A stretch of 64,000 nt of DNA from a virus (IMGVR_UViG_3300035670_000026:1-64000), one strand, 5' to 3'; counted from the stretch's first letter, positions 3,629 to 10,545 are shown. Program-made: numbers and translations. Notes: generated from the letters alone by a model not told the origin.

Positions 3629-3859
3629 ATGGAAGATTTTATCTCACAAAACGAATTCCAATTAGAAATGTCTGCAATTAAAGAAGCAAAAATTAATGCT
3701 GACTGTGACCATATTTTGACTGAAGCTGATCGTTATGGTCTTCAGTTGGAGGTAGTTTGGTCTGCTTTTAAACATAAAGAAGATTTTCCAACTGCTTCTT
3801 TTCTTGAATGCCTACAAGTAGGTGCAAAAGATTGGGATGTTATAACTAAGTTTGGATAA
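3629..3859 (+). CDS. Hypothetical protein
   Basis: Tightly packed ORF in the operon. Confidence 0.55.
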   Translation: MEDFISQNEFQLEMSAIKEAKINADCDHILTEADRYGLQLEVVWSAFKHKEDFPTASFLECLQVGAKDWDVITKFG

Positions 3860-3894: not shown

Positions 3895-3980
3895 ACCGCC
3901 TTGGTGAAATAGGTAGACACGAGGGACTTAAAATCCCTTGGGCAGTGATGCTCGTGCCGGTTCGATTCCGGCAGGCGGTA
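3895..3980 (+). tRNA. tRNA-Leu(TAA)
   Basis: Acceptor ACCGCCT/AGGCGGT, AGGGA-CT-TAA-AA-TCCCT, long variable arm, GGTTCGATTCC. Confidence 0.95.
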
Positions 3981-4002
3981 CAAAGATTGTTCTTTAAAAT
4001 AT

Positions 4003-4076
4003 GGTTCGGTAGCTCAGCTGGATAGAGCAACAGCCTTCTAAGCTGTGGGTCACAGGTTCGAATCCTGTTCGAATCA
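4003..4076 (+). tRNA. tRNA-Arg(TCT)
   Basis: ACAGC-CT-TCT-AA-GCTGT; canonical D and T arms. Confidence 0.95.
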
Positions 4077-4081
4077 CTAAA

Positions 4082-4155
4082 GCGCTTATAGCTCAGTTGG
4101 TTAGAGCATCCGACTCATAATCGGCAGGTCCTAGGTTCAAGCCCTAGTAGGCGCA
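4082..4155 (+). tRNA. tRNA-CAT (Ile2-lysidine type or elongator Met)
   Basis: CCGA-CT-CAT-AA-TCGG; body resembles bacterial tRNA-Ile2. Confidence 0.9.
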
Positions 4156-4230
4156 CCTAAATTTGGAGATATAAAATATTTATATTATATTACCATTATA
4201 GTTCTTTGAAAATATTAAATACCCAAAAGT

Positions 4231-4560
4231 GCCCCGATAGGATAACCTTTTTGCAATAACCTGCTGAAATTGCATTAACGGAGAGGTTCGCAAGCAGGTG
4301 AGGGTTCCCATTGGATATGAAAGTCTGGTGAGAAATAGGTTGGTTTAGTTCCCGTTATGTTTTTAGTAACATTATCGGGGCCGCTAAAAACGAGCGGAAG
4401 TTAAATTCAAAGTATTAAAGCAAAGTCAACACAATAGCTTTGTTCTCACAGCTTATTAGTAATACACGTCGGGAGGTGTAGCTAGTAAGGGAAAACGAAT
4501 AGGACGTCGGGTTCTAATCGCCAGATAGAAATATCATATTGCCGTGCTTAGAAATAAGCC
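4231..4560 (+). ncRNA. Unassigned structured RNA between tRNAs
   Basis: GCCCCGATA (4231) pairs with TATCGGGGC (4373-4381); internal TGCAAT/ATTGCA and ACCTGC/GCAGGT helices; has its own promoter (4163) and boxA-like site (4201); no credible ORF. Confidence 0.55.
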
Positions 4561-4565
4561 AAAAT

Positions 4566-4636
4566 TGACGGTTCGTCTAACGGCAGGACGCTTGGCCCCG
4601 ACCCAAGAAATGTAGGTTCGATCCCTACACCGTTAA
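4566..4636 (+). tRNA. Atypical tRNA, anticodon CCG (nominal Arg) with C33 and a Gln-like body
   Basis: TGACGGT/ACCGTTA acceptor, CTTGG-CC-CCG-AC-CCAAG, GTAGG-TTCGATC-CCTAC. Confidence 0.75.
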
Positions 4637-4666
4637 CAAAGTTAGCTACAGACTTAAATGTGGAAT

Positions 4667-4751
4667 GGAAGATTGGCAGAGTGGTCGATCGCGGCAGTCT
4701 TGAAAACTGTTGTACCGCAAGGTACCGTAGGTTCGAATCCTACATCTTCCG
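4667..4751 (+). tRNA. tRNA-Ser(TGA)
   Basis: GCAGT-CT-TGA-AA-ACTGT, long variable arm, G73. Confidence 0.95.
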
Positions 4752-4773
4752 CTAAACTTAAAAATAAATAAAC

Positions 4774-5031
4774 ATGAATGAAGTTACAGTTACAGTACTG
4801 CCACATCCAGTGACAATGTTCTTTATAGGAGCAATGCTATTAGGTATAGTTTTACTGTTAATCGAATTTTCCAAAACCCGTCGTGAGGTTCGGGAAACTA
4901 AAAAAGAATTTAATACTATGAATAAACATATCATTGATGTTAAATCCTACACAGAAAAATCAATTCAAGAAGTTTCTCGTAAAGTAGATTCAAGAATCGA
5001 CAAAGCGCTTGGAAATTTAAAAAAAGATTGA
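4774..5031 (+). CDS. Small membrane protein with coiled-coil tail
   Basis: N-terminal hydrophobic helix followed by a coiled coil. Confidence 0.6.
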   Translation: MNEVTVTVLPHPVTMFFIGAMLLGIVLLLIEFSKTRREVRETKKEFNTMNKHIIDVKSYTEKSIQEVSRKVDSRIDKALGNLKKD

Positions 5032-5068
5032 TATATTTATATAACACAATTAATAATTAAAAACAAAG

Positions 5069-5230
5069 ATGAAAAAAACCTTTTTCGCACTTGTAGCAAT
5101 TGCTACCCTTGCTTCATGTACTAATAATACCGAAGCCACTTTAACTGATTCAACTTCGTGTGATACATGTGTTGTTGATTCAACTGTAGTTGATACGCTA
5201 TGTGTTGACACTACAGTAGTAGCCGAGTAA
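5069..5230 (+). CDS. Small lipoprotein (53 aa, not in the ORF track)
   Basis: MKKTFFALVAIATLASC: signal peptide II with LASC lipobox; follows promoter 5009. Confidence 0.75.
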   Translation: MKKTFFALVAIATLASCTNNTEATLTDSTSCDTCVVDSTVVDTLCVDTTVVAE

Positions 5231-5242
5231 TCGGCTTAAAAT

Positions 5243-5315
5243 GCCCGCGTAGCTCAATAGGTAGAGCAATTGATTTGTAATCAATAGGTTGTAGGTTCGA
5301 TTCCTATCGCTGGCT
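5243..5315 (+). tRNA. tRNA-Thr(TGT)
   Basis: ATTGA-TT-TGT-AA-TCAAT cloverleaf. Confidence 0.93.
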
Positions 5316-5339
5316 CAAAAAAATGTTCTTTAACATAAT

Positions 5340-5412
5340 GCGGTAGTAGCTCAGTTGGTAGAGCATGACCTTGCCAAGGTCAGGGTCGCTGGTTCGAACC
5401 CAGTTTGCCGCT
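5340..5412 (+). tRNA. tRNA-Gly(GCC)
   Basis: TGACC-TT-GCC-AA-GGTCA; GCG acceptor start, U73. Confidence 0.95.
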
Positions 5413-5417
5413 CAAAT

Positions 5418-5489
5418 GCGAATATCGTATAATGGTTATTACTCCTTCCTTCCAAGTAGGAGATGTCGGTTCGATTCCGGCTATTCGCT
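5418..5489 (+). tRNA. tRNA-Gly(TCC)
   Basis: CCTTC-CT-TCC-AA-GTAGG; GCG acceptor start, U73. Confidence 0.92.
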
Positions 5490-5596
5490 CAAAAAGCTTT
5501 TTAAAATTTTTTTAAAATAGCTTGGATGTTTGAAATTTCGTTCGTATATTTACGGTATAGAAATTGAAAAACAAAACGTTCTTTAAATTATTGAAA

Positions 5597-6431
5597 TATC
5601 CATTCAACGCAAGTTGATAAAAGATATTGGCCGTCTATGGTCGTTAAATAAACCTCGAAAGGGGGATAAAGTGAATTACATGACAAAGTAGTTTGCGGCT
5701 TCGAAAGGAGCTCGAGTAGACAAGCGAGATATCATTTAGTCTAAAGTAGTGAGGGTAACTCCGTAGCGAAACGATTGAATGACCTAGCGATGTGGGTCGT
5801 TAGGTTGAGTCCGGAAGGACAATAAGAATAACTCGTAGAATATATGTAAGAAGTATTTCCATCCAGATTTACAATTGCGTTATTCAATATCAGAGGGTAC
5901 TTAAAGCCGAAAGGCATGTAAATGTACAGGTGGTGCTGTTATTTACCTTGACCTTAGTCTACCAAGACATGAGTCATGAAGTAATCTTAAAGTATGGAGG
6001 TAGGGATATCTCAGAGAGTAGTTTAGTATTTTCTCGCTCAAAAGGTGAGAAAGCTAGGTTGGTAAGCCACTACTTTCAATCATCCACGTCAAAAACTTTG
6101 CTATTTGGAATGCAAATTCAAAACTAACAAAGCAAAAGTGCTTACCAGTCACGGACGAAAGATGCCTACATAGTAGTGAGTTGTTCACTGCCACTAGAGG
6201 TTGCAAGCCAATAGTGATTCGTTTGAAAAATTTGTAACCTCGGCAGGGGTTTATCAGACCGCAAGTTTGAACAGATAGAGTATAGCGAGAGTAGTCCAAT
6301 ACAAGTGACTTAAAGAGTGGTTCACTTAAATAACCGGCATTGTTAGGATACAAGTCAAAAGCTTGTGGATAAGAAGGGAATAAATAATCCGACAAAAGAT
6401 CTAACATATAAACGTATAATCTCAGCGTTTT
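5597..6431 (+). ncRNA. Large ornate ncRNA, probably GOLLD family (about 830 nt)
   Basis: Higher GC than flanks; many hairpins (CCTCGAAAGGGG, TCCGGAAGGA, GCCGAAAGGC, terminal AAACG..CGTTT); own promoter (5522) and boxA (5578); size and tRNA-array context match GOLLD; boundaries approximate. Confidence 0.65.
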
Positions 6432-6498
6432 AAAAATTTACGCAAGTTGGACATTTTAGAGGATCGTTTCCTCTATTGCGACAAAAATAAAATTTAAC

Positions 6499-6507
6499 AT
6501 ATTTATA
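6499..6507 (+). promoter_or_regulatory. ATATTTATA putative phage (late-type) promoter upstream of the leader ORF
   Basis: Same motif recurs before many structural and cargo genes. Confidence 0.6.
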
Positions 6508-6533
6508 ATAAACATTTTTTAAATTCGATAACA

Positions 6534-6620
6534 ATGACACGCCATAGTATATATAACCTTCAAATGAACATTTGGTTTGCACCAGTGAAGGAGGATACCT
6601 TGCCGTGCTTTGTTGTATAA
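6534..6620 (+). CDS. Putative attenuator leader peptide MTRHSIYNLQMNIWFAPVKEDTLPCFVV (28 aa)
   Basis: 19 of 20 amino acids in 28 codons; 3' end overlaps the antiterminator strand. Confidence 0.8.
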   Translation: MTRHSIYNLQMNIWFAPVKEDTLPCFVV

Positions 6621-6658
6621 TGTGAAAATAAAAAACACTATGAAAAACAAAGCCCGGC
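6602..6658 (+). promoter_or_regulatory. Antiterminator helix
   Basis: GCCGTGCTTTGTT (6602-6614) is complementary at 12/13 positions to AACAAAGCCCGGC (6646-6658), which contains the terminator 5' arm. Confidence 0.8.
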
Positions 6659-6681
6659 CCTAAAAAGCCGGGTTTTTTTTT
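6651..6681 (+). terminator. Intrinsic terminator (attenuator) upstream of the tRNA array
   Basis: AGCCCGGC-cctaaaaa-GCCGGGTT followed by a T-tract. Confidence 0.9.
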
Positions 6682-6683
6682 GA

Positions 6684-6695
6684 GTTCTTTGACAT
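6684..6695 (+). promoter_or_regulatory. boxA-like antitermination site GTTCTTTGACAT
   Basis: Similar to rrn boxA (GCTCTTTAACA); GTTCTTT copies at 3989, 4201, 5325, 5578, 6684, 8274. Confidence 0.65.
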
Positions 6696-6709
6696 GTTGG
6701 AAAAAAGAC

Positions 6710-6784
6710 GACCTCATAGCTCAATTGGTTTAGAGCACTATACTTTTAATATAGGGGTTTCGAGTTCGAGTCTCGATGGGGTCA
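6710..6784 (+). tRNA. tRNA-Lys(TTT)
   Basis: CTATA-CT-TTT-AA-TATAG. Confidence 0.93.
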
Positions 6785-6861
6785 CAAAAAAATCGTAGCG
6801 TACCGAAAGGGAAAAAGATGATTTAGCCAATCATCACAGGTTAAGCGATATCCTGTAATTT

Positions 6862-6934
6862 CCCACCTTAGCTCAGTTGGTAGAGCGCTTGCCTTACATG
6901 CAAGATGTCGCTGGTTCGAGTCCAGCAGGAGGGA
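6862..6934 (+). tRNA. tRNA-Val(TAC)
   Basis: CTTGC-CT-TAC-AT-GCAAG. Confidence 0.93.
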
Positions 6935-6941
6935 CAAAAAT

Positions 6942-7023
6942 GCCAGTATCGCATAGCGGCAATTGCAGCTGACTGTAAATCAGCTCCCTTACGGGTTCGG
7001 AGGTTCGAGTCCTTCTGCTGGCA
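6942..7023 (+). tRNA. tRNA-Tyr(GTA)
   Basis: GCTGA-CT-GTA-AA-TCAGC, long variable arm. Confidence 0.92.
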
Positions 7024-7033
7024 CAAATAAAAT

Positions 7034-7106
7034 GGATAGGTAGCTCAGTTGGTAGAGCGTCGGCCTGAAGAGCCGAGCGTCGGGGGTTCAAATCCCTCTC
7101 TGTCCA
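7034..7106 (+). tRNA. tRNA-Phe(GAA)
   Basis: TCGGC-CT-GAA-GA-GCCGA. Confidence 0.93.
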
Positions 7107-7112
7107 CAATAT

Positions 7113-7186
7113 GGAGATATAGCTCAGTTGGTTAGAGCACTTGCCTGATACGCAGGGGGTCATAGGTTCGAGTCCTATTTTCTCCA
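7113..7186 (+). tRNA. tRNA-Ile(GAT)
   Basis: CTTGC-CT-GAT-AC-GCAGG. Confidence 0.93.
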
Positions 7187-7192
7187 CTTAAT

Positions 7193-7265
7193 AGTGATAT
7201 AGCTCAATGGTGAGAGCAGATGCCTTATACGCATCAGGTTACGAGTTCGAGTCTCGTTATCACTA
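7193..7265 (+). tRNA. tRNA-Ile(TAT)
   Basis: GATGC-CT-TAT-AC-GCATC. Confidence 0.9.
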
Positions 7266-7270
7266 CAATT

Positions 7271-7354
7271 GGAAGGTAAAGCAACCAGGGTGTTGTCACC
7301 GCCTGCTAAGCGAGTGGTACTTTCGAGTATGAATTTCGATTATTCTGCCTTCCG
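7271..7354 (+). tRNA. tRNA-Ser(GCT), atypical D and T arms
   Basis: GGAAGGT/GCCTTCC, G73, CGC-CT-GCT-AA-GCG, long variable arm. Confidence 0.8.
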
Positions 7355-7398
7355 CTAAAATTTAAAAACTATGTAAAAATATTTATAAAAAAACAGCT

Positions 7399-7851
7399 AT
7401 GCAATTCAAGACTCTCCGAAACAGAAAAGACATTGATCTGGTTGAATACGTTCGGGACTACATCAATGAAAATCCACAAGTTGAAATCCTTATAGGATGC
7501 GACTCACAAAACCATATAGACACTACAGTATATGCTACAGTGGTTGCTCTATACAAACCACAAGCTGGTGCCCATGTTCTTTTCTGTAAAGAGGTTACTC
7601 AAACAGAAAAAGTTCGTCAAGTTAGATTGATGAATGAAGTTTGGAAATCAATTGAAGTTGCCGAATTACTAAAAAATTCAGGTTTACCAAGAGCAAAATA
7701 TATCGATATTGACCTTAACCCAGATAAAAGATTTAAATCAAATGAAGTTCTAAGAGCAGCAGTTGGTTTAGTTGAAGGAATGGGTTACAGCGTTAGATAT
7801 AAATCATTAGGTGCATTAGTAACTACAGCGGCTGATGCATTGGTAAAATAA
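7399..7851 (+). CDS. RNase H-like YkuK (DUF458) family protein
   Basis: IGCDSQ, RLMNEVWKS, IDIDLN and AAD motifs. Confidence 0.8.
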   Translation: MQFKTLRNRKDIDLVEYVRDYINENPQVEILIGCDSQNHIDTTVYATVVALYKPQAGAHVLFCKEVTQTEKVRQVRLMNEVWKSIEVAELLKNSGLPRAKYIDIDLNPDKRFKSNEVLRAAVGLVEGMGYSVRYKSLGALVTTAADALVK

Positions 7852-7855
7852 TCAA

Positions 7856-7929
7856 GGTCCCTTAGCTCAACGGATTAGAGCACTTCGCTACGGACGAAGG
7901 GGTTAGGAGTTCGAATCTCTTAGGGACTA
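7856..7929 (+). tRNA. tRNA-Arg(ACG)
   Basis: CTTCG-CT-ACG-GA-CGAAG. Confidence 0.93.
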
Positions 7930-7934
7930 CAAAT

Positions 7935-8005
7935 GGTCCTATGTCCGATTGGCAAGGTGAAGCTCTGCAAAAGCTTTTATGTTGGTTCAAATCCAACTAG
8001 GACCT
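7935..8005 (+). tRNA. tRNA-Cys(GCA)
   Basis: AAGCT-CT-GCA-AA-AGCTT, U73. Confidence 0.9.
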
Positions 8006-8011
8006 CAATAC

Positions 8012-8075
8012 ATGGGTGTGGTGAAATGGTATCATTACGGTCTCCAAAACCGCAGTTCAGGGTTCGAATCCTTGC
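8012..8075 (+). tRNA. tRNA-Trp(CCA)
   Basis: CGGT-CT-CCA-AA-ACCG; G73 plus encoded CCA; 3' coordinate approximate. Confidence 0.88.
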
Positions 8076-8125
8076 ACCCGTGCCAACTATCCGATGTGTT
8101 TACCGAGCTAGGTCGGTTTTAACAT

Positions 8126-8199
8126 GGTGGATATAGCTCAATCGGGAGAGCGTTGGTTTGTGGAACCAAAGGTAGTGGGATCGAAACCCACTATTCACC
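8126..8199 (+). tRNA. tRNA-His(GTG)
   Basis: G-1/C73; TTGGT-TT-GTG-GA-ACCAA. Confidence 0.92.
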
Positions 8200-8297
8200 C
8201 AAAAAATTTCACCAAAAATTTGGAGAAGTAAAAGATTAGTCGTACATTTACGACATAGAATTAAGAACAAGTTGTTCTTTGACGTATTGGAAAAAAT

Positions 8298-8379
8298 GCC
8301 TTGGTGGTGGAAATGGTAGACACAGCGGTCTTAGAAACCGTAGCTTTATCGCTTGCGAGTTCGAGTCTCGCCCGAGGTA
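8298..8379 (+). tRNA. tRNA-Leu(TAG)
   Basis: GCGGT-CT-TAG-AA-ACCGT, long variable arm. Confidence 0.93.
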
Positions 8380-8382
8380 CAA

Positions 8383-8582
8383 ATGAAACACTTCCTACAG
8401 AAGACAGATTAGCACTGTTGAAAGGAACCTTGGCTTACGGGAGTAATTACCATAGTAAGTTACAAAATGACCCAAGGTACTCTGTGATGGACCCTGCTCT
8501 GTGGTGCACTCATAACAGGTGGACAGTAAACTATGTCCAGTCAAATCCACAACTACGGTGAGCGTAGAGGAAGCAGTTTCAT
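8383..8582 (+). ncRNA. Unassigned ~200-nt structured RNA
   Basis: Closing helix ATGAAAC..CTTCCT / AGGAAG..GTTTCAT; internal CCTTGG/CCAAGG, CTTAC/GTAAG, TGGACA/TGTCCA. Confidence 0.6.
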
Positions 8583-8586
8583 ATTC

Positions 8587-8658
8587 GTCTTGGTAGCTCA
8601 GTGGTAGAGCTAGCGGCTGTTAACCGCTCGGCCGGAGGTTCGAATCCTCCCCAGGACG
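8587..8658 (+). tRNA. tRNA-Asn(GTT)
   Basis: AGCGG-CT-GTT-AA-CCGCT, G73. Confidence 0.93.
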
Positions 8659-8666
8659 CAAAAAAT

Positions 8667-8738
8667 GGCCCGTTCGTCTATCGGTTAGGACACCAGGTTT
8701 TCAACCTGTAAAGACGAGTTCGACTCTCGTACGGGCTA
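8667..8738 (+). tRNA. tRNA-Glu(TTC)
   Basis: CAGG-TT-TTC-AA-CCTG. Confidence 0.93.
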
Positions 8739-8742
8739 CAAA

Positions 8743-8836
8743 AATTATATCCTTAGGTACCCATACAGCGGTGAGATGGGCTAAGTTAGATACAATTCCT
8801 CGGAGCTGGGAGTAGAATGCCTAATGTGATATGATT
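8743..8836 (+). ncRNA. Unassigned ~94-nt structured RNA
   Basis: AATTATATC/GATATGATT and TTAGGTA/TGCCTAA closing stems with internal hairpins. Confidence 0.5.
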
Positions 8837-8847
8837 TAAAAATAAAT

Positions 8848-8922
8848 TGCGGGGAACTAGAGCTGGTGCACTGACGAGTCTCATAAGCTCGGACTAGGTG
8901 GGTTCGATTCCCTCCCCCGCAA
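8848..8922 (+). tRNA. tRNA-Met(CAT), initiator-like acceptor, atypical D arm
   Basis: TGCGGGG/CCCCGCA; CGAGT-CT-CAT-AA-GCTCG. Confidence 0.82.
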
Positions 8923-8928
8923 CTATAT

Positions 8929-8999
8929 TTTCCTCTCGTCTAATGGCAGGACAAGTGGTTTTGAGCCACTGAATCGGAGTTCGAATCTCTGGGGGAAAA
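8929..8999 (+). tRNA. tRNA-Gln(TTG)
   Basis: AGTGG-TT-TTG-AG-CCACT; U1-A72. Confidence 0.9.
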
Positions 9000-9004
9000 C
9001 AATT

Positions 9005-9077
9005 GGGGTTGTAGCTCAACTGGCTGAGCGCTTCCTTTGCAAGGAAGAGGATGAGGGTTCGAATCCCTTCTGCTCCA
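9005..9077 (+). tRNA. tRNA-Ala(TGC)
   Basis: CTTCC-TT-TGC-AA-GGAAG; G3-U70. Confidence 0.93.
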
Positions 9078-9080
9078 CAA

Positions 9081-9157
9081 TTGGTAAGTTCCTCACACCT
9101 AGGGTTAGTGAATAATTTAAAGGAGGCATGTAAATACACAAGGTTACAACTTACCAA
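9081..9157 (+). ncRNA. Unassigned ~77-nt structured RNA
   Basis: Perfect 10-bp closing stem TTGGTAAGTT/AACTTACCAA. Confidence 0.45.
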
Positions 9158-9161
9158 ATTC

Positions 9162-9233
9162 GGTCCATTGGTGTAATGGCTAACATGCAGCACTGTCTAT
9201 GCTGCGCTACGAGTTCGATTCTCGTATGGACCG
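9162..9233 (+). tRNA. tRNA-Asp(GTC)
   Basis: CAGCA-CT-GTC-TA-TGCTG, G73. Confidence 0.9.
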
Positions 9234-9235
9234 CT

Positions 9236-9363
9236 AAAGAAAAAGTAGTGAAGCTGTAATTGAGAAGTAGAGTGTATTAATTGCTGAAAAAGGGTTTATA
9301 GTAAGTAGGCGTCACTCATTGCACTCAATCAGAAACCCTGAAAGACCCGAAGCTTTTTCTTTT
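9236..9363 (+). ncRNA. Unassigned ~128-nt structured RNA
   Basis: AAAGAAAAAG/CTTTTTCTTT closing stem; AGGGTTT/AAACCCT internal helix. Confidence 0.45.
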
Positions 9364-9365
9364 CT

Positions 9366-9438
9366 CGGGAAGTAGATCAGTTGGTAGATCGCCTGGTTTG
9401 GGACCAGGAGGCCGCAGGTTCGAGTCCTGTCTTCCCGA
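9366..9438 (+). tRNA. tRNA-Pro(TGG)
   Basis: CCTGG-TT-TGG-GA-CCAGG; CGG acceptor start. Confidence 0.95.
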
Positions 9439-9500
9439 CAATAATTTTTCCAATATGTCTTTGTAATTGGTTAATATTTATAATAAAAAAACCAATTATT

Positions 9501-9671
9501 ATGAAAAATATAACTAAAGAACAATTTTTAGGTATTGTTAGACATACCTTAACTTTCGTAGGTGGTATTTTACTTACTCAAGGTATAATTGATGCTTCGC
9601 TTTTAGGTGAAGTTTCTGGTGCTATTGTAACATTAGCTGGTGCTATTTGGTCTGTAGTAAGTAAAAAATAA
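9501..9671 (+). CDS. Putative holin (two TM helices)
   Basis: Real start at ATG 9501 (the upstream extension overlaps tRNA-Pro); GIVRHTLTFVGG motif; adjacent to the endolysin. Confidence 0.65.
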   Translation: MKNITKEQFLGIVRHTLTFVGGILLTQGIIDASLLGEVSGAIVTLAGAIWSVVSKK

Positions 9672-9886
9672 TGAAAGATTTTATAGTTAAAATGTTTTCC
9701 AATAATGAAGGTACTTCTTCTAAAAGAGTACTTGGAGCTATTGGATTACTTTCTATGATAGTATTTATGTTTTTACACCCTACTAGTGATATAGCTGTTG
9801 AAACTGTTGGTTATGTTACTATAGCTTATGGTGTAGGAACAGTAGTTGAAAAATTTGCTAAAAAAGGTACTAATCCTGAAATATAA
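9671..9886 (+). CDS. Small membrane protein (holin/antiholin-like)
   Basis: SSKR motif plus two TM segments, in the lysis cassette. Confidence 0.55.
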   Translation: MKDFIVKMFSNNEGTSSKRVLGAIGLLSMIVFMFLHPTSDIAVETVGYVTIAYGVGTVVEKFAKKGTNPEI

Positions 9887-10545
9887 TGTCTATACCAAAA
9901 ACAACATTAGTTGAGTTTCCTGAAAATCAGTATTATAAAACTCAATTTAAAAAAAATCAAATTTATTTACACCATACTGCGGGAAATGCTGATGCAAAAA
10001 ATGTTTTTCATGGATGGAAAAGTGATAAAGGAAGAATAGGAACTTGTGTCTCTATATCAGGTAAAGGTAAAAATACGATTGATGGAGAAATAATACAAGG
10101 TTTTTCATCTAAATTTTGGGCTTATCATTTAGGTGTTAAAACTAAACATTTTCAAGCTATGAAATTACCTTATAAAGAGTTAGATAAATTTTCTATAGGT
10201 ATTGAAATTTGTAATTGGGGACAATTAACTTTAAAAGATGGTAAATTTTATAATTATGTAAATCGTGAAGTTCTAGCTAGTGAAGTTTATGAATTATCTA
10301 TACCACATAGAGGATACAAGTATTACCATAATTACACTGATGCTCAAATTGAATCTACAAGACAACTTTTAGTTTATTGGGGTAAATTATATAATATTCC
10401 TTTAATATATAATGAAGATATTTTTGGTTTAACTCCAAGAGCATTTAAAGGAGAAGCAGGAATATTTACACATAATTCAGTTCGACCTGATAAAGTAGAT
10501 ATATATCCTCATCCTAAATTAATTGAAATGTTAAAATCGTTATAA
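9886..10545 (+). CDS. N-acetylmuramoyl-L-alanine amidase (Amidase_2) endolysin
   Basis: IYLHHTAG, WAYH, SIGIE, THNSVRPDKVD. Confidence 0.85.
   Translation: MSIPKTTLVEFPENQYYKTQFKKNQIYLHHTAGNADAKNVFHGWKSDKGRIGTCVSISGKGKNTIDGEIIQGFSSKFWAYHLGVKTKHFQAMKLPYKELDKFSIGIEICNWGQLTLKDGKFYNYVNREVLASEVYELSIPHRGYKYYHNYTDAQIESTRQLLVYWGKLYNIPLIYNEDIFGLTPRAFKGEAGIFTHNSVRPDKVDIYPHPKLIEMLKSL

Follow-up and report, generated by a model that had tools for sequence, protein, structure and literature searches.

The tRNA Array and Its Leader Unit

The DNA analyzed here, called the window throughout, makes up the first 64 kb of an IMG/VR virus record of 149.8 kb (IMGVR_UViG_3300035670_000026); its G+C content is 32.5%. 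ARAGORN finds 26 tRNA genes in it, all on the plus strand and spread over positions 3895–9439. Behind tRNA-Gly(TCC), which ends at 5490, the array gives way to a promoter-like site, a boxA-like motif (5578), the GOLLD RNA, a short open reading frame (ORF), an intrinsic terminator and a second boxA-like motif (6684), after which the tRNA genes resume with tRNA-Lys at 6710 (table 1). The short ORF, hereafter the leader, and the terminator are the subject of this study, and we consider it likely that they form a transcription attenuator ahead of the tRNA genes.

Table 1. Features of the leader unit and the adjoining tRNA genes (positions in the window).
Feature	Position	Strand	Remarks
Bacteroidota-type promoter-like site (CTTGG, 19 nt, TATATTTA)	5521–5552	+	Upstream of GOLLD
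boxA-like motif GTTCTTTAA	5578–5586	+	Between promoter-like site and GOLLD
GOLLD RNA	5590–6430	+	5' end approximate; conserved 3' domain 6014–6428
-7-like promoter element ATATTTATAAT	6499–6509	+	Invariant in the family A alignment; putative function
Region 1, 5' arm of hairpin including start codon	6528–6562	+	Minimum free energy (MFE) fold; compensatory changes between window and L016–L019
Leader ORF	6534–6620	+	28 codons and stop; kept in nine distinct family A sequences
Region 2, 3' arm of hairpin	6586–6620	+	Antiterminator strand 6601–6611, complementary to terminator 5' arm
Regions 3 and 4, intrinsic terminator and U tract	6649–6681	+	Stem 6649–6676; hairpin -14.7 kcal/mol
boxA-like motif GTTCTTTGA	6684–6692	+	Directly after terminator
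Putatively gated block, part one	6710–8200	+	Lys, Val, Tyr, Phe, Ile(GAT), Ile(TAT), Ser(GCT) (sub-threshold), RNase H-like ORF, Arg(ACG), Cys, Trp, His
tRNA-Ser(GCT)-like, degenerate	7271–7355	+	Relaxed ARAGORN thresholds only
RNase H-like ORF, 150 amino acids	7399–7851	+	Pfam PF04308 (formerly DUF458/YkuK-like)
Internal promoter-like site (TTTGG, 19 nt, TACATTTA)	8219–8250	+	boxA-like motif follows at 8274
Putatively gated block, last eight tRNAs	8298–9439	+	Leu(TAG), Asn, Glu, Met, Gln, Ala, Asp, Pro
freshwater-1-like RNA (RF02979)	8483–8545	+	Between tRNA-Leu(TAG) and tRNA-Asn

The RNase H-like ORF inside the array served to fetch 94 related phage loci, many of which share contigs. Eighty related loci and the window (81 sequences) were searched by a rule blind to composition, namely the longest ATG ORF ending 12–45 nt before a terminator with a plus-strand tRNA next. 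The arrangement of ORF, terminator and tRNA was recovered in 55 of the 81, yielding 57 unique ORFs, and the spacing from stop codon to terminator stem is 21–33 nt across the leader families. These families share little sequence similarity, to the point that the hairpin sequence is wholly different from one to the next. Family A, with 28 codons, comprises the window and L016–L019; leaders of family B have 29–31 codons, those of families C and D 39–53, and those of family E 39–49, while families F and G belong to phages with two leaders and one tRNA block behind each. Leaders of near-complete arrays mostly hold 19–20 kinds of amino acids and those of half arrays 13–18. When the DNA of the window's leader region was compared with the first 14 relatives, similarity was found only at the boxA-like site, and the analogous ORFs were located by position. 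Two huge phages of GenBank that carry GOLLD (LR756502.1, LR745206.1) show no leader-terminator unit after it in the stretch fetched.

Composition and Coding Signal of the Leader

The 28 codons of the window's leader specify 19 kinds of amino acids, Gly alone being absent, and the first ten codons are all different. At least 19 kinds occur in 0.05% of the stop-free 28-residue windows across the 64 kb, and the leader ranks first in diversity among the window's 194 ATG ORFs of 20–40 amino acids. None of 1055 control ORFs of 25–29 amino acids from the related loci reaches 19 kinds. Such diversity has a probability of 0.004 under the base composition of the ORF itself and of 0.0013–0.0017 under that of phage proteins. 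Thinning at 45% identity left most families collapsed and put leaders of full arrays together with those of partial blocks, and Fisher's combined P for the nine resulting representatives (0.0009) is a rough figure only.

Further variants of the family A leader were sought in two ways: a viral collection returned only the four known contigs, and a metagenome scan added seven (one with the leader cut at the contig end) besides nine unrelated matches. Among the nine distinct nucleotide sequences now available, codons 4–21 show five variable sites, all of them third-position synonymous transitions, and each stays within the reading of one tRNA. The chance that five variable sites all fall at third positions is (1/3)^5 = 0.004. 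The sites at codons 8 and 20 form a compensatory change of a hairpin pair, from C-G to U-A. Residue changes are limited to codons 2–3 and 22–28, which lie on mutually pairing strands, and the window's own changes at codon 3 and codons 22–25 are complementary. In families B and C amino-acid changes affect most codons and variation falls evenly on the three codon positions, yet neither the frame nor the full complement of kinds is lost. Two leaders of family B have different residues at 14 of 31 positions, and each retains all 20 kinds (P = 0.0026 for a random draw of the changed residues). The conserved ATG and stop codon, together with the three-base periodicity of substitutions, point to a translated ORF.

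Alternative RNA Structures

The leader lies inside a long, imperfect hairpin formed by regions 1 and 2, and the MFE of the stretch 6500–6690 beats that of all 200 shuffles (z = -3.5). The terminator stem has ten pairs, six of them G-C, and is followed by nine T. The strand 6601–6611, which ends 7 nt ahead of the stop codon, has two alternative partners: the 5' arm of the terminator, with a duplex of -10.4 kcal/mol, or 6536–6546 within the long hairpin. The layout in the window is therefore the classical 1:2, 2:3 and 3:4 arrangement of the trp type.

The same pairing is found among the relatives. When the 110 nt upstream were matched with the terminator's 5' arm in each of 56 unique leaders, the strongest duplexes showed a median of -12.0 kcal/mol (z = -2.1 against shuffles), compared with -6.8 kcal/mol (z = +0.1) for 50 control terminators that have no tRNAs after them. 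The antiterminator strand finishes 6–19 nt short of the stop codon in most of the 56, the extremes being -5 and 23. Between families, its sequence tracks that of the terminator across at least eight arm types, for example GGGCUU/AAGCCC, GUUAGAGG/CCUCUAAC, GUUAAGGG/CCCUUAAC, UCCCGAGG/CCUCGGGA and CCAGGGCU/AGCCCUGG. For family B, RNAalifold returns both the long hairpin and the terminator and finds five compensatory pairs in them, and the 2:3 helix has 89% of its cells paired against 24–54% for slid partner columns. Covariation of the antiterminator inside this family is weak (one compensatory pair), so that the covariation evidence is that between families.

At equilibrium, the predicted probability of the terminator in the window is 0.94 without a ribosome and 0.0–0.5 with a 28-nt footprint masked at codons 2–8. 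A clear switch of this kind appears in families A, B and some others; masked equilibrium folding was not used for defining the codons sensed. Among Rfam models, no T-box or riboswitch matches the leader region, and the models of two amino-acid leaders, Phe_leader (RF01859, 25.2 bits) and Thr_leader (RF00506, 25.1 bits), stay below the gathering threshold of 55 bits with matches that span little beyond the terminator.

Leader Codons and the tRNAs Behind Them

The initial annotation of this locus described the leader as an inventory of the operon that it controls, starting from 19 downstream tRNAs for 18 amino acids, every one of them represented in the leader. With ARAGORN at its default the block amounts to 18 tRNAs for 17 amino acids. 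The larger count is obtained with the tRNA-Ser(GCT)-like gene, which has an atypical, weak T arm, goes uncalled at default thresholds and finds no Rfam tRNA match even at E = 10; once it is counted, all 18 amino acids are indeed present in the leader. Under strict wobble the downstream tRNAs read 21 of the 27 leader codons of the window. If the weak tRNA-Ser and extended U34 wobble are admitted, the latter being required for decoding of CTT by anticodon TAG, every leader codon is read except ACA, ACC and TTG, which agrees with the exceptions previously given, Thr and the late TTG codon. The assignment of codons in split families to the boxes of the downstream isoacceptors was likewise correct as to the codons (Arg CGC, Ser AGT, Ile ATA and ATT, first Leu CTT), but the match is not significant in the window alone. 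Similarly, the absence of Gly from the leader, which had been connected with the upstream position of both Gly tRNAs (5340, 5418), is true of the window and fails as a rule, since codon 25 specifies Gly in eight of the nine distinct sequences of family A, even though their Gly tRNAs also lie upstream. Codon 25 falls inside the antiterminator strand, where the sequence is set by structure, and the window's loss of Gly and gain of Cys accompany structure-linked changes.

It is the comparison with relatives that supports the inventory. The check proposed beforehand, a correlation of leader codons with downstream anticodons judged against a permutation null, was carried out on 53 unique leader/block pairs: the share of codons read by the leader's own block averages 0.726, against 0.630 ± 0.010 when blocks are permuted, and none of 5000 permutations reaches the observed value. 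For the 17 partial blocks the shares are 0.599 and 0.408, respectively. The five two-leader phages offer an internal comparison, in which 189 codons are read by the own block only and 55 by the other block only, with the same lean in all ten leaders. Even the Ser and Arg boxes are divided as in the blocks, TCN and CGN codons going to one leader and AGY and AGR to the other. Over all unique leaders the own block reads 633 of 899 informative codons, where 500 are expected from phage codon usage, and synonymous choice favors own-block anticodons in each of seven leader families, whether wobble is taken as strict or extended. Finally, in single-leader phages with upstream tRNAs, codons read by upstream tRNAs only are depleted about nine-fold ahead of the antiterminator strand (5 observed, 46 expected).

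Promoters, boxA-Like Motifs, GOLLD, and the Probable Host

A promoter class of the Bacteroidota type (TTTG / TAnnTTTR), with TTTGG, a 19-nt spacer and (C)GTAnATTTA, recurs on the plus strand of the window at 1961, 3058, 3851, 8219 and 45866, and with one mismatch at 5521; a looser pattern gives 23 matches, where 11.4 ± 3.4 are expected. The copy at 5521 stands ahead of GOLLD, and its surroundings (5503–5563) are similar to positions 4934–4993 of L005, where the promoter directly precedes the leader and there is no GOLLD. The copy at 3851 lies directly before the first tRNA gene, Leu(TAA), so that the upstream tRNA block appears to be unattenuated. An internal promoter near 8220 had been suspected in the initial annotation, and the site at 8219–8250 does fit this recurrent class and is kept in L028 and in the close relatives L016, L017 and L019. 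Elements like the one at 6499–6509 sit 5–30 nt before leaders in other families, and it is possible that this element is the leader's own promoter.

The boxA-like consensus GTTCTTTRA has seven plus-strand matches in the 64 kb, six of which fall in the tRNA region (3989, 4201, 5325, 5578, 6684 and 8274). Of 67 leader terminators, 19 have such a motif 4–13 nt past the stem and 24 have one within 60 nt, against a background of 0.19 per kb. Two Chitinophagaceae isolates (L168, L169) have GTTCTTTGAAAG some 150 nt before 16S and GCTCTTTAAA behind TTTG / TAnnTTTG rrn promoters. The core of GTTCTTTGA and GTTCTTTAA is thereby shared with the 16S leaders of these two genomes, and it resembles the rrn boxA of Escherichia coli. 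These motifs suggest that a polymerase that has passed the attenuator would carry the antitermination factors of host rRNA transcription.

GOLLD itself is a full-length match to its Rfam model (RF02032, positions 1–416 of 416) at 6014–6428, with 273.9 bits against a gathering threshold of 150, and about 880 nt of the region can be aligned to 39 related loci. The order of GOLLD, leader ORF, terminator and tRNA array is kept in more than 30 loci that belong to several leader families; a tmRNA and tRNA-Met are often found ahead of GOLLD in those loci. Most family B loci have the promoter, ORF, terminator and boxA-like site without GOLLD.

With respect to the host, contigs related to the window fall mostly into bins of Chitinophagaceae and other Bacteroidota. 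A Shine-Dalgarno core precedes only 9% of the window's long ORFs, and the upstream regions are 51% A. Together, the promoter class, the scarcity of Shine-Dalgarno cores, the binning of related contigs and the boxA-like motif shared with rRNA leaders point to a Bacteroidota host. The source is a freshwater phage, probably one of Chitinophagaceae.

A Probable Attenuator of tRNA Genes

A short ORF on the same strand, an intrinsic terminator, a mutually exclusive antiterminator pairing and a correspondence between leader codons and the genes behind them are all present at this locus. We therefore regard the unit 6528–6692 as probably a ribosome-mediated attenuator of the trp type that would raise transcription of the tRNA genes when decoding is slow. 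The sequence features, with their conservation, covariation and codon matching, are observed; that the ORF is translated, which way the switch works and which codons it senses is what we infer from them. In the mechanism that we propose, transcription would enter from the promoter ahead of GOLLD (5521–5552), from the weak promoter at about 6499, or from both. With no ribosome on the leader, or with one that arrives fast at the stop codon, region 2 would be held in the hairpin with region 1 or hidden under the ribosome. The terminator would then fold, and transcription would halt before the tRNAs. If, on the other hand, a cognate aminoacyl-tRNA is scarce, the ribosome would be delayed on the early codons and occupy region 1, leaving 6601–6611 to pair with the 5' arm of the terminator, and RNA polymerase would continue. 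It would next meet the boxA-like motif at 6684, which would probably recruit the Nus factors of the host's rRNA operons, and transcribe the tRNA array. Because almost every amino acid has roughly one codon in the leader, and these are codons read by the phage's own tRNAs behind it, the leader would respond to the decoding pool in its entirety and not to one amino acid. It would feed back on the phage's tRNA supply.

Several observations weigh against this interpretation. Taken alone, the window is not discriminating: its isoacceptor match covers 6 of 9 informative codons against 3.6 expected, which is not significant, its antiterminator is modest (z = -1.7, P = 0.08), and the larger blocks of other phages match its leader better than its own does (0.85 vs. 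0.78). The leader includes codons that have their tRNAs upstream, namely Thr ACA (codon 2), Thr ACC (codon 22) and TTG. The many loci compared are akin, and the pooled P values overstate their independence and are thus optimistic, although the direction is consistent in every family. Equilibrium folding of the window loses the terminator only for stalls at codons 2–8, and sensing of early codons alone would leave the near-20-amino-acid content of the whole ORF unexplained. The long leaders of families C, D and E, whose terminators are very stable, show no terminator loss in masked folding, and the switch would therefore have to be kinetic. As to transcription, the element at 6499–6509 lacks a clear -33 element and, given the internal promoter at 8219–8250, the attenuator cannot be the only control of the last eight tRNAs. 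Moreover, we know of no characterization of transcription-translation coupling in Bacteroidota.

Among other explanations, the one closest to an attenuator is that the unit reports global ribosome loading or movement instead of a codon inventory, the diversity of the leader being a by-product of avoiding bias toward any single amino acid. Equilibrium masking, which suggests that only stalls in the first 8–13 codons free the antiterminator, is in line with such a sensor, as are the upstream-tRNA codons of the window's leader and its better match to the larger blocks of other phages. A global sensor would nevertheless have no need of what the two-leader phages show, a division of the code in which each leader follows its own block even for the Ser and Arg boxes, nor does it account for the roughly nine-fold depletion of upstream-tRNA codons in the early part of the leaders, and we hold it to be unlikely. 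Still less probable, in our judgment, is a small functional protein followed by its own terminator (the hairpin and T run), with tRNAs transcribed from other promoters. The residues of codons 4–21 in family A are invariant while synonymous sites vary, as under purifying selection, and the array does hold small conserved proteins, such as the lipoprotein encoded at 5069–5230. Families B and C, however, replace most residues and still keep the frame and the full set of kinds. A protein would also leave unexplained why an antiterminator near the stop codon covaries with the terminator, and why leaders match their own blocks and prefer synonymous codons for own-block anticodons. Between the terminator and tRNA-Lys at 6710, furthermore, no promoter was found, only the boxA-like site.

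The remaining two explanations dispense with a meaningful ORF. In one, the sequence 3' of GOLLD contains the open frame by chance, and the terminator serves only to close the GOLLD transcript: GOLLD and the leader are about 100 nt apart, no other intrinsic terminator lies between GOLLD and 6649, GOLLD stands ahead of the leader in more than 30 loci, and the region is structured RNA. Yet most family B relatives keep the unit without GOLLD, the frame is open in all families, the substitutions are synonymous and the composition is far off chance, which makes such an origin very improbable. In the other, the unit works as a structured RNA like a riboswitch or T-box, switched by direct binding of a ligand or tRNA, and the ORF is incidental. 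A long conserved hairpin that adjoins a terminator with an alternative pairing is what such a switch would offer; but the Rfam searches gave no match of that type and only sub-threshold scores for the Phe and Thr leaders, the three-base periodicity and the conserved ATG and stop codon point to translation, and the hairpin sequence differs completely between families while the logic of the ORF remains constant. We can give this last explanation hardly any credence. An attenuator read by ribosomes thus remains our preferred account of the leader unit.

Other Features of the Array

The tRNA genes outside the block behind the leader include a tRNA-Thr at 5243, upstream of the leader, and the Thr codon ACA at codon 2 is common to the window and the L019-type variants (L019, L105, L108, L109, L111, L112). 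Within the block, tRNA-Ile(TAT) (7193–7266, plus strand, 75 bits), an uncommon reader of ATA, adjoins tRNA-Ile(GAT); the leader has both ATA and ATT. In relatives, normal genes for Ser(GCT) or Ser(ACT) are found at other places in the array. Some relatives also have suppressor-like tRNAs in their arrays, given by ARAGORN as Stop and Pyl: the anticodon is TTA in L018, whereas L081 and L095 have CTA.

The RNase H-like protein has relatives in at least 225 stretches of viral contigs, and in the loci fetched its gene is embedded among the tRNA genes; the protein may take part in tRNA processing. The freshwater-1 motif scores 70.6 bits in the window, under its gathering threshold of 72, and 72.9 bits in relatives (L002, 6989–7050). 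Between tRNA-Met and tRNA-Arg(CCG), 408 nt on the plus strand (4158–4565) contain no ORF, include the boxA-like motif at 4201, have a fold z of -2.1 and find no match in Rfam; this stretch may be another structured RNA. The gaps 8381–8586 (z = -2.9) and 8740–8847 (z = -2.1) resemble it.

Two small proteins are encoded in the upstream part of the array region. One is a membrane protein of 85 amino acids (4774–5031). The other is the lipoprotein already mentioned (5069–5230, plus strand), which has 53 amino acids rich in Thr, Val and Asp and an LPAM signal, lies just before tRNA-Thr, and is 42–81% identical in family A and B relatives. Its ORF was considered as a second leader, for the Thr-Gly-Gly block, and rejected, as its conservation is that of a protein bearing a lipoprotein signal and the hairpin there lacks a U tract. 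Directly past the array, a lysis module (9501–10545, plus strand) comprises a Pam3 gp28-type holin (PF23987), a second small membrane ORF and an Amidase_2 endolysin.

Significance and Relation to Known Systems

To our knowledge, the regulation of phage tRNA genes is largely unknown, and a full-text literature search found no paper that describes leader-peptide attenuation of tRNA genes or the order of GOLLD, leader ORF, terminator and tRNAs. In a wider reading, which we advance tentatively and stop just short of calling probable, phages of Bacteroidota would possess a near-pangram sensor of decoding capacity, with about one codon per amino acid, that opens its own tRNA array upon any slow reading; it would be the first attenuator of tRNA genes and the most multivalent leader known. 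If so, the phage would measure the decoding capacity of its host codon by codon and correct it, replacing on demand those tRNAs that are scarce, mismatched to its AT-rich codon usage or cleaved by host anticodon nucleases. This would bear on why phages carry tRNAs at all, be it codon-usage mismatch, host shut-off or escape from tRNA-cleaving defenses. The leaders would constitute a sequence-level readout of the codons that a phage treats as limiting, and a compact natural sensor of translation speed, and GOLLD would gain a defined genetic neighborhood.

Leader-peptide attenuation is textbook knowledge for amino-acid operons. Like the E. coli leaders trpL, hisL, pheL and leuL, the phage unit combines a short ORF and an intrinsic terminator with mutually exclusive 1:2, 2:3 and 3:4 pairings, its stop codon lies near region 2, and its presumed regulatory codons match what the operon supplies. 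It departs from them in governing tRNAs rather than enzymes, in being borne by a phage, probably of a Bacteroidota host, in having region 2 inside the ORF, and in belonging to no Rfam family. Amino-acid leaders contain runs of one to three kinds of codons, and the multivalent thrL and ilvGMEDA leaders sense two or three amino acids, whereas the phage leaders have about one codon each for 17–20. In E. coli pheM-pheST, a leader peptide controls an aminoacyl-tRNA synthetase operon. There too a component of the translation apparatus is attenuated and charged tRNA is sensed through the speed of the ribosome, but for a single amino acid, for protein-coding genes and in a cellular genome. T-box riboswitches similarly set a terminator against an antiterminator in response to tRNA status; they bind uncharged tRNA directly and are untranslated, in contrast to the phage unit, with its coding signal and no T-box match.

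Two further parallels concern the surroundings of the leader. As in rrn boxA/Nus antitermination, GTTCTTTGA or GTTCTTTAA stands after promoters and the attenuator and before long structured RNA genes; the phage differs in having its boxA-like site on a tRNA array, directly behind a terminator that is probably regulated. The adjacency of GOLLD and the tRNA array in the window is like that already known for phage tRNA islands (Rfam RF02032; bioRxiv 10.1101/2024.12.08.627333). GOLLD has also been reported to pull down ribosomes, and together with the leader it may form one module for the takeover of translation.

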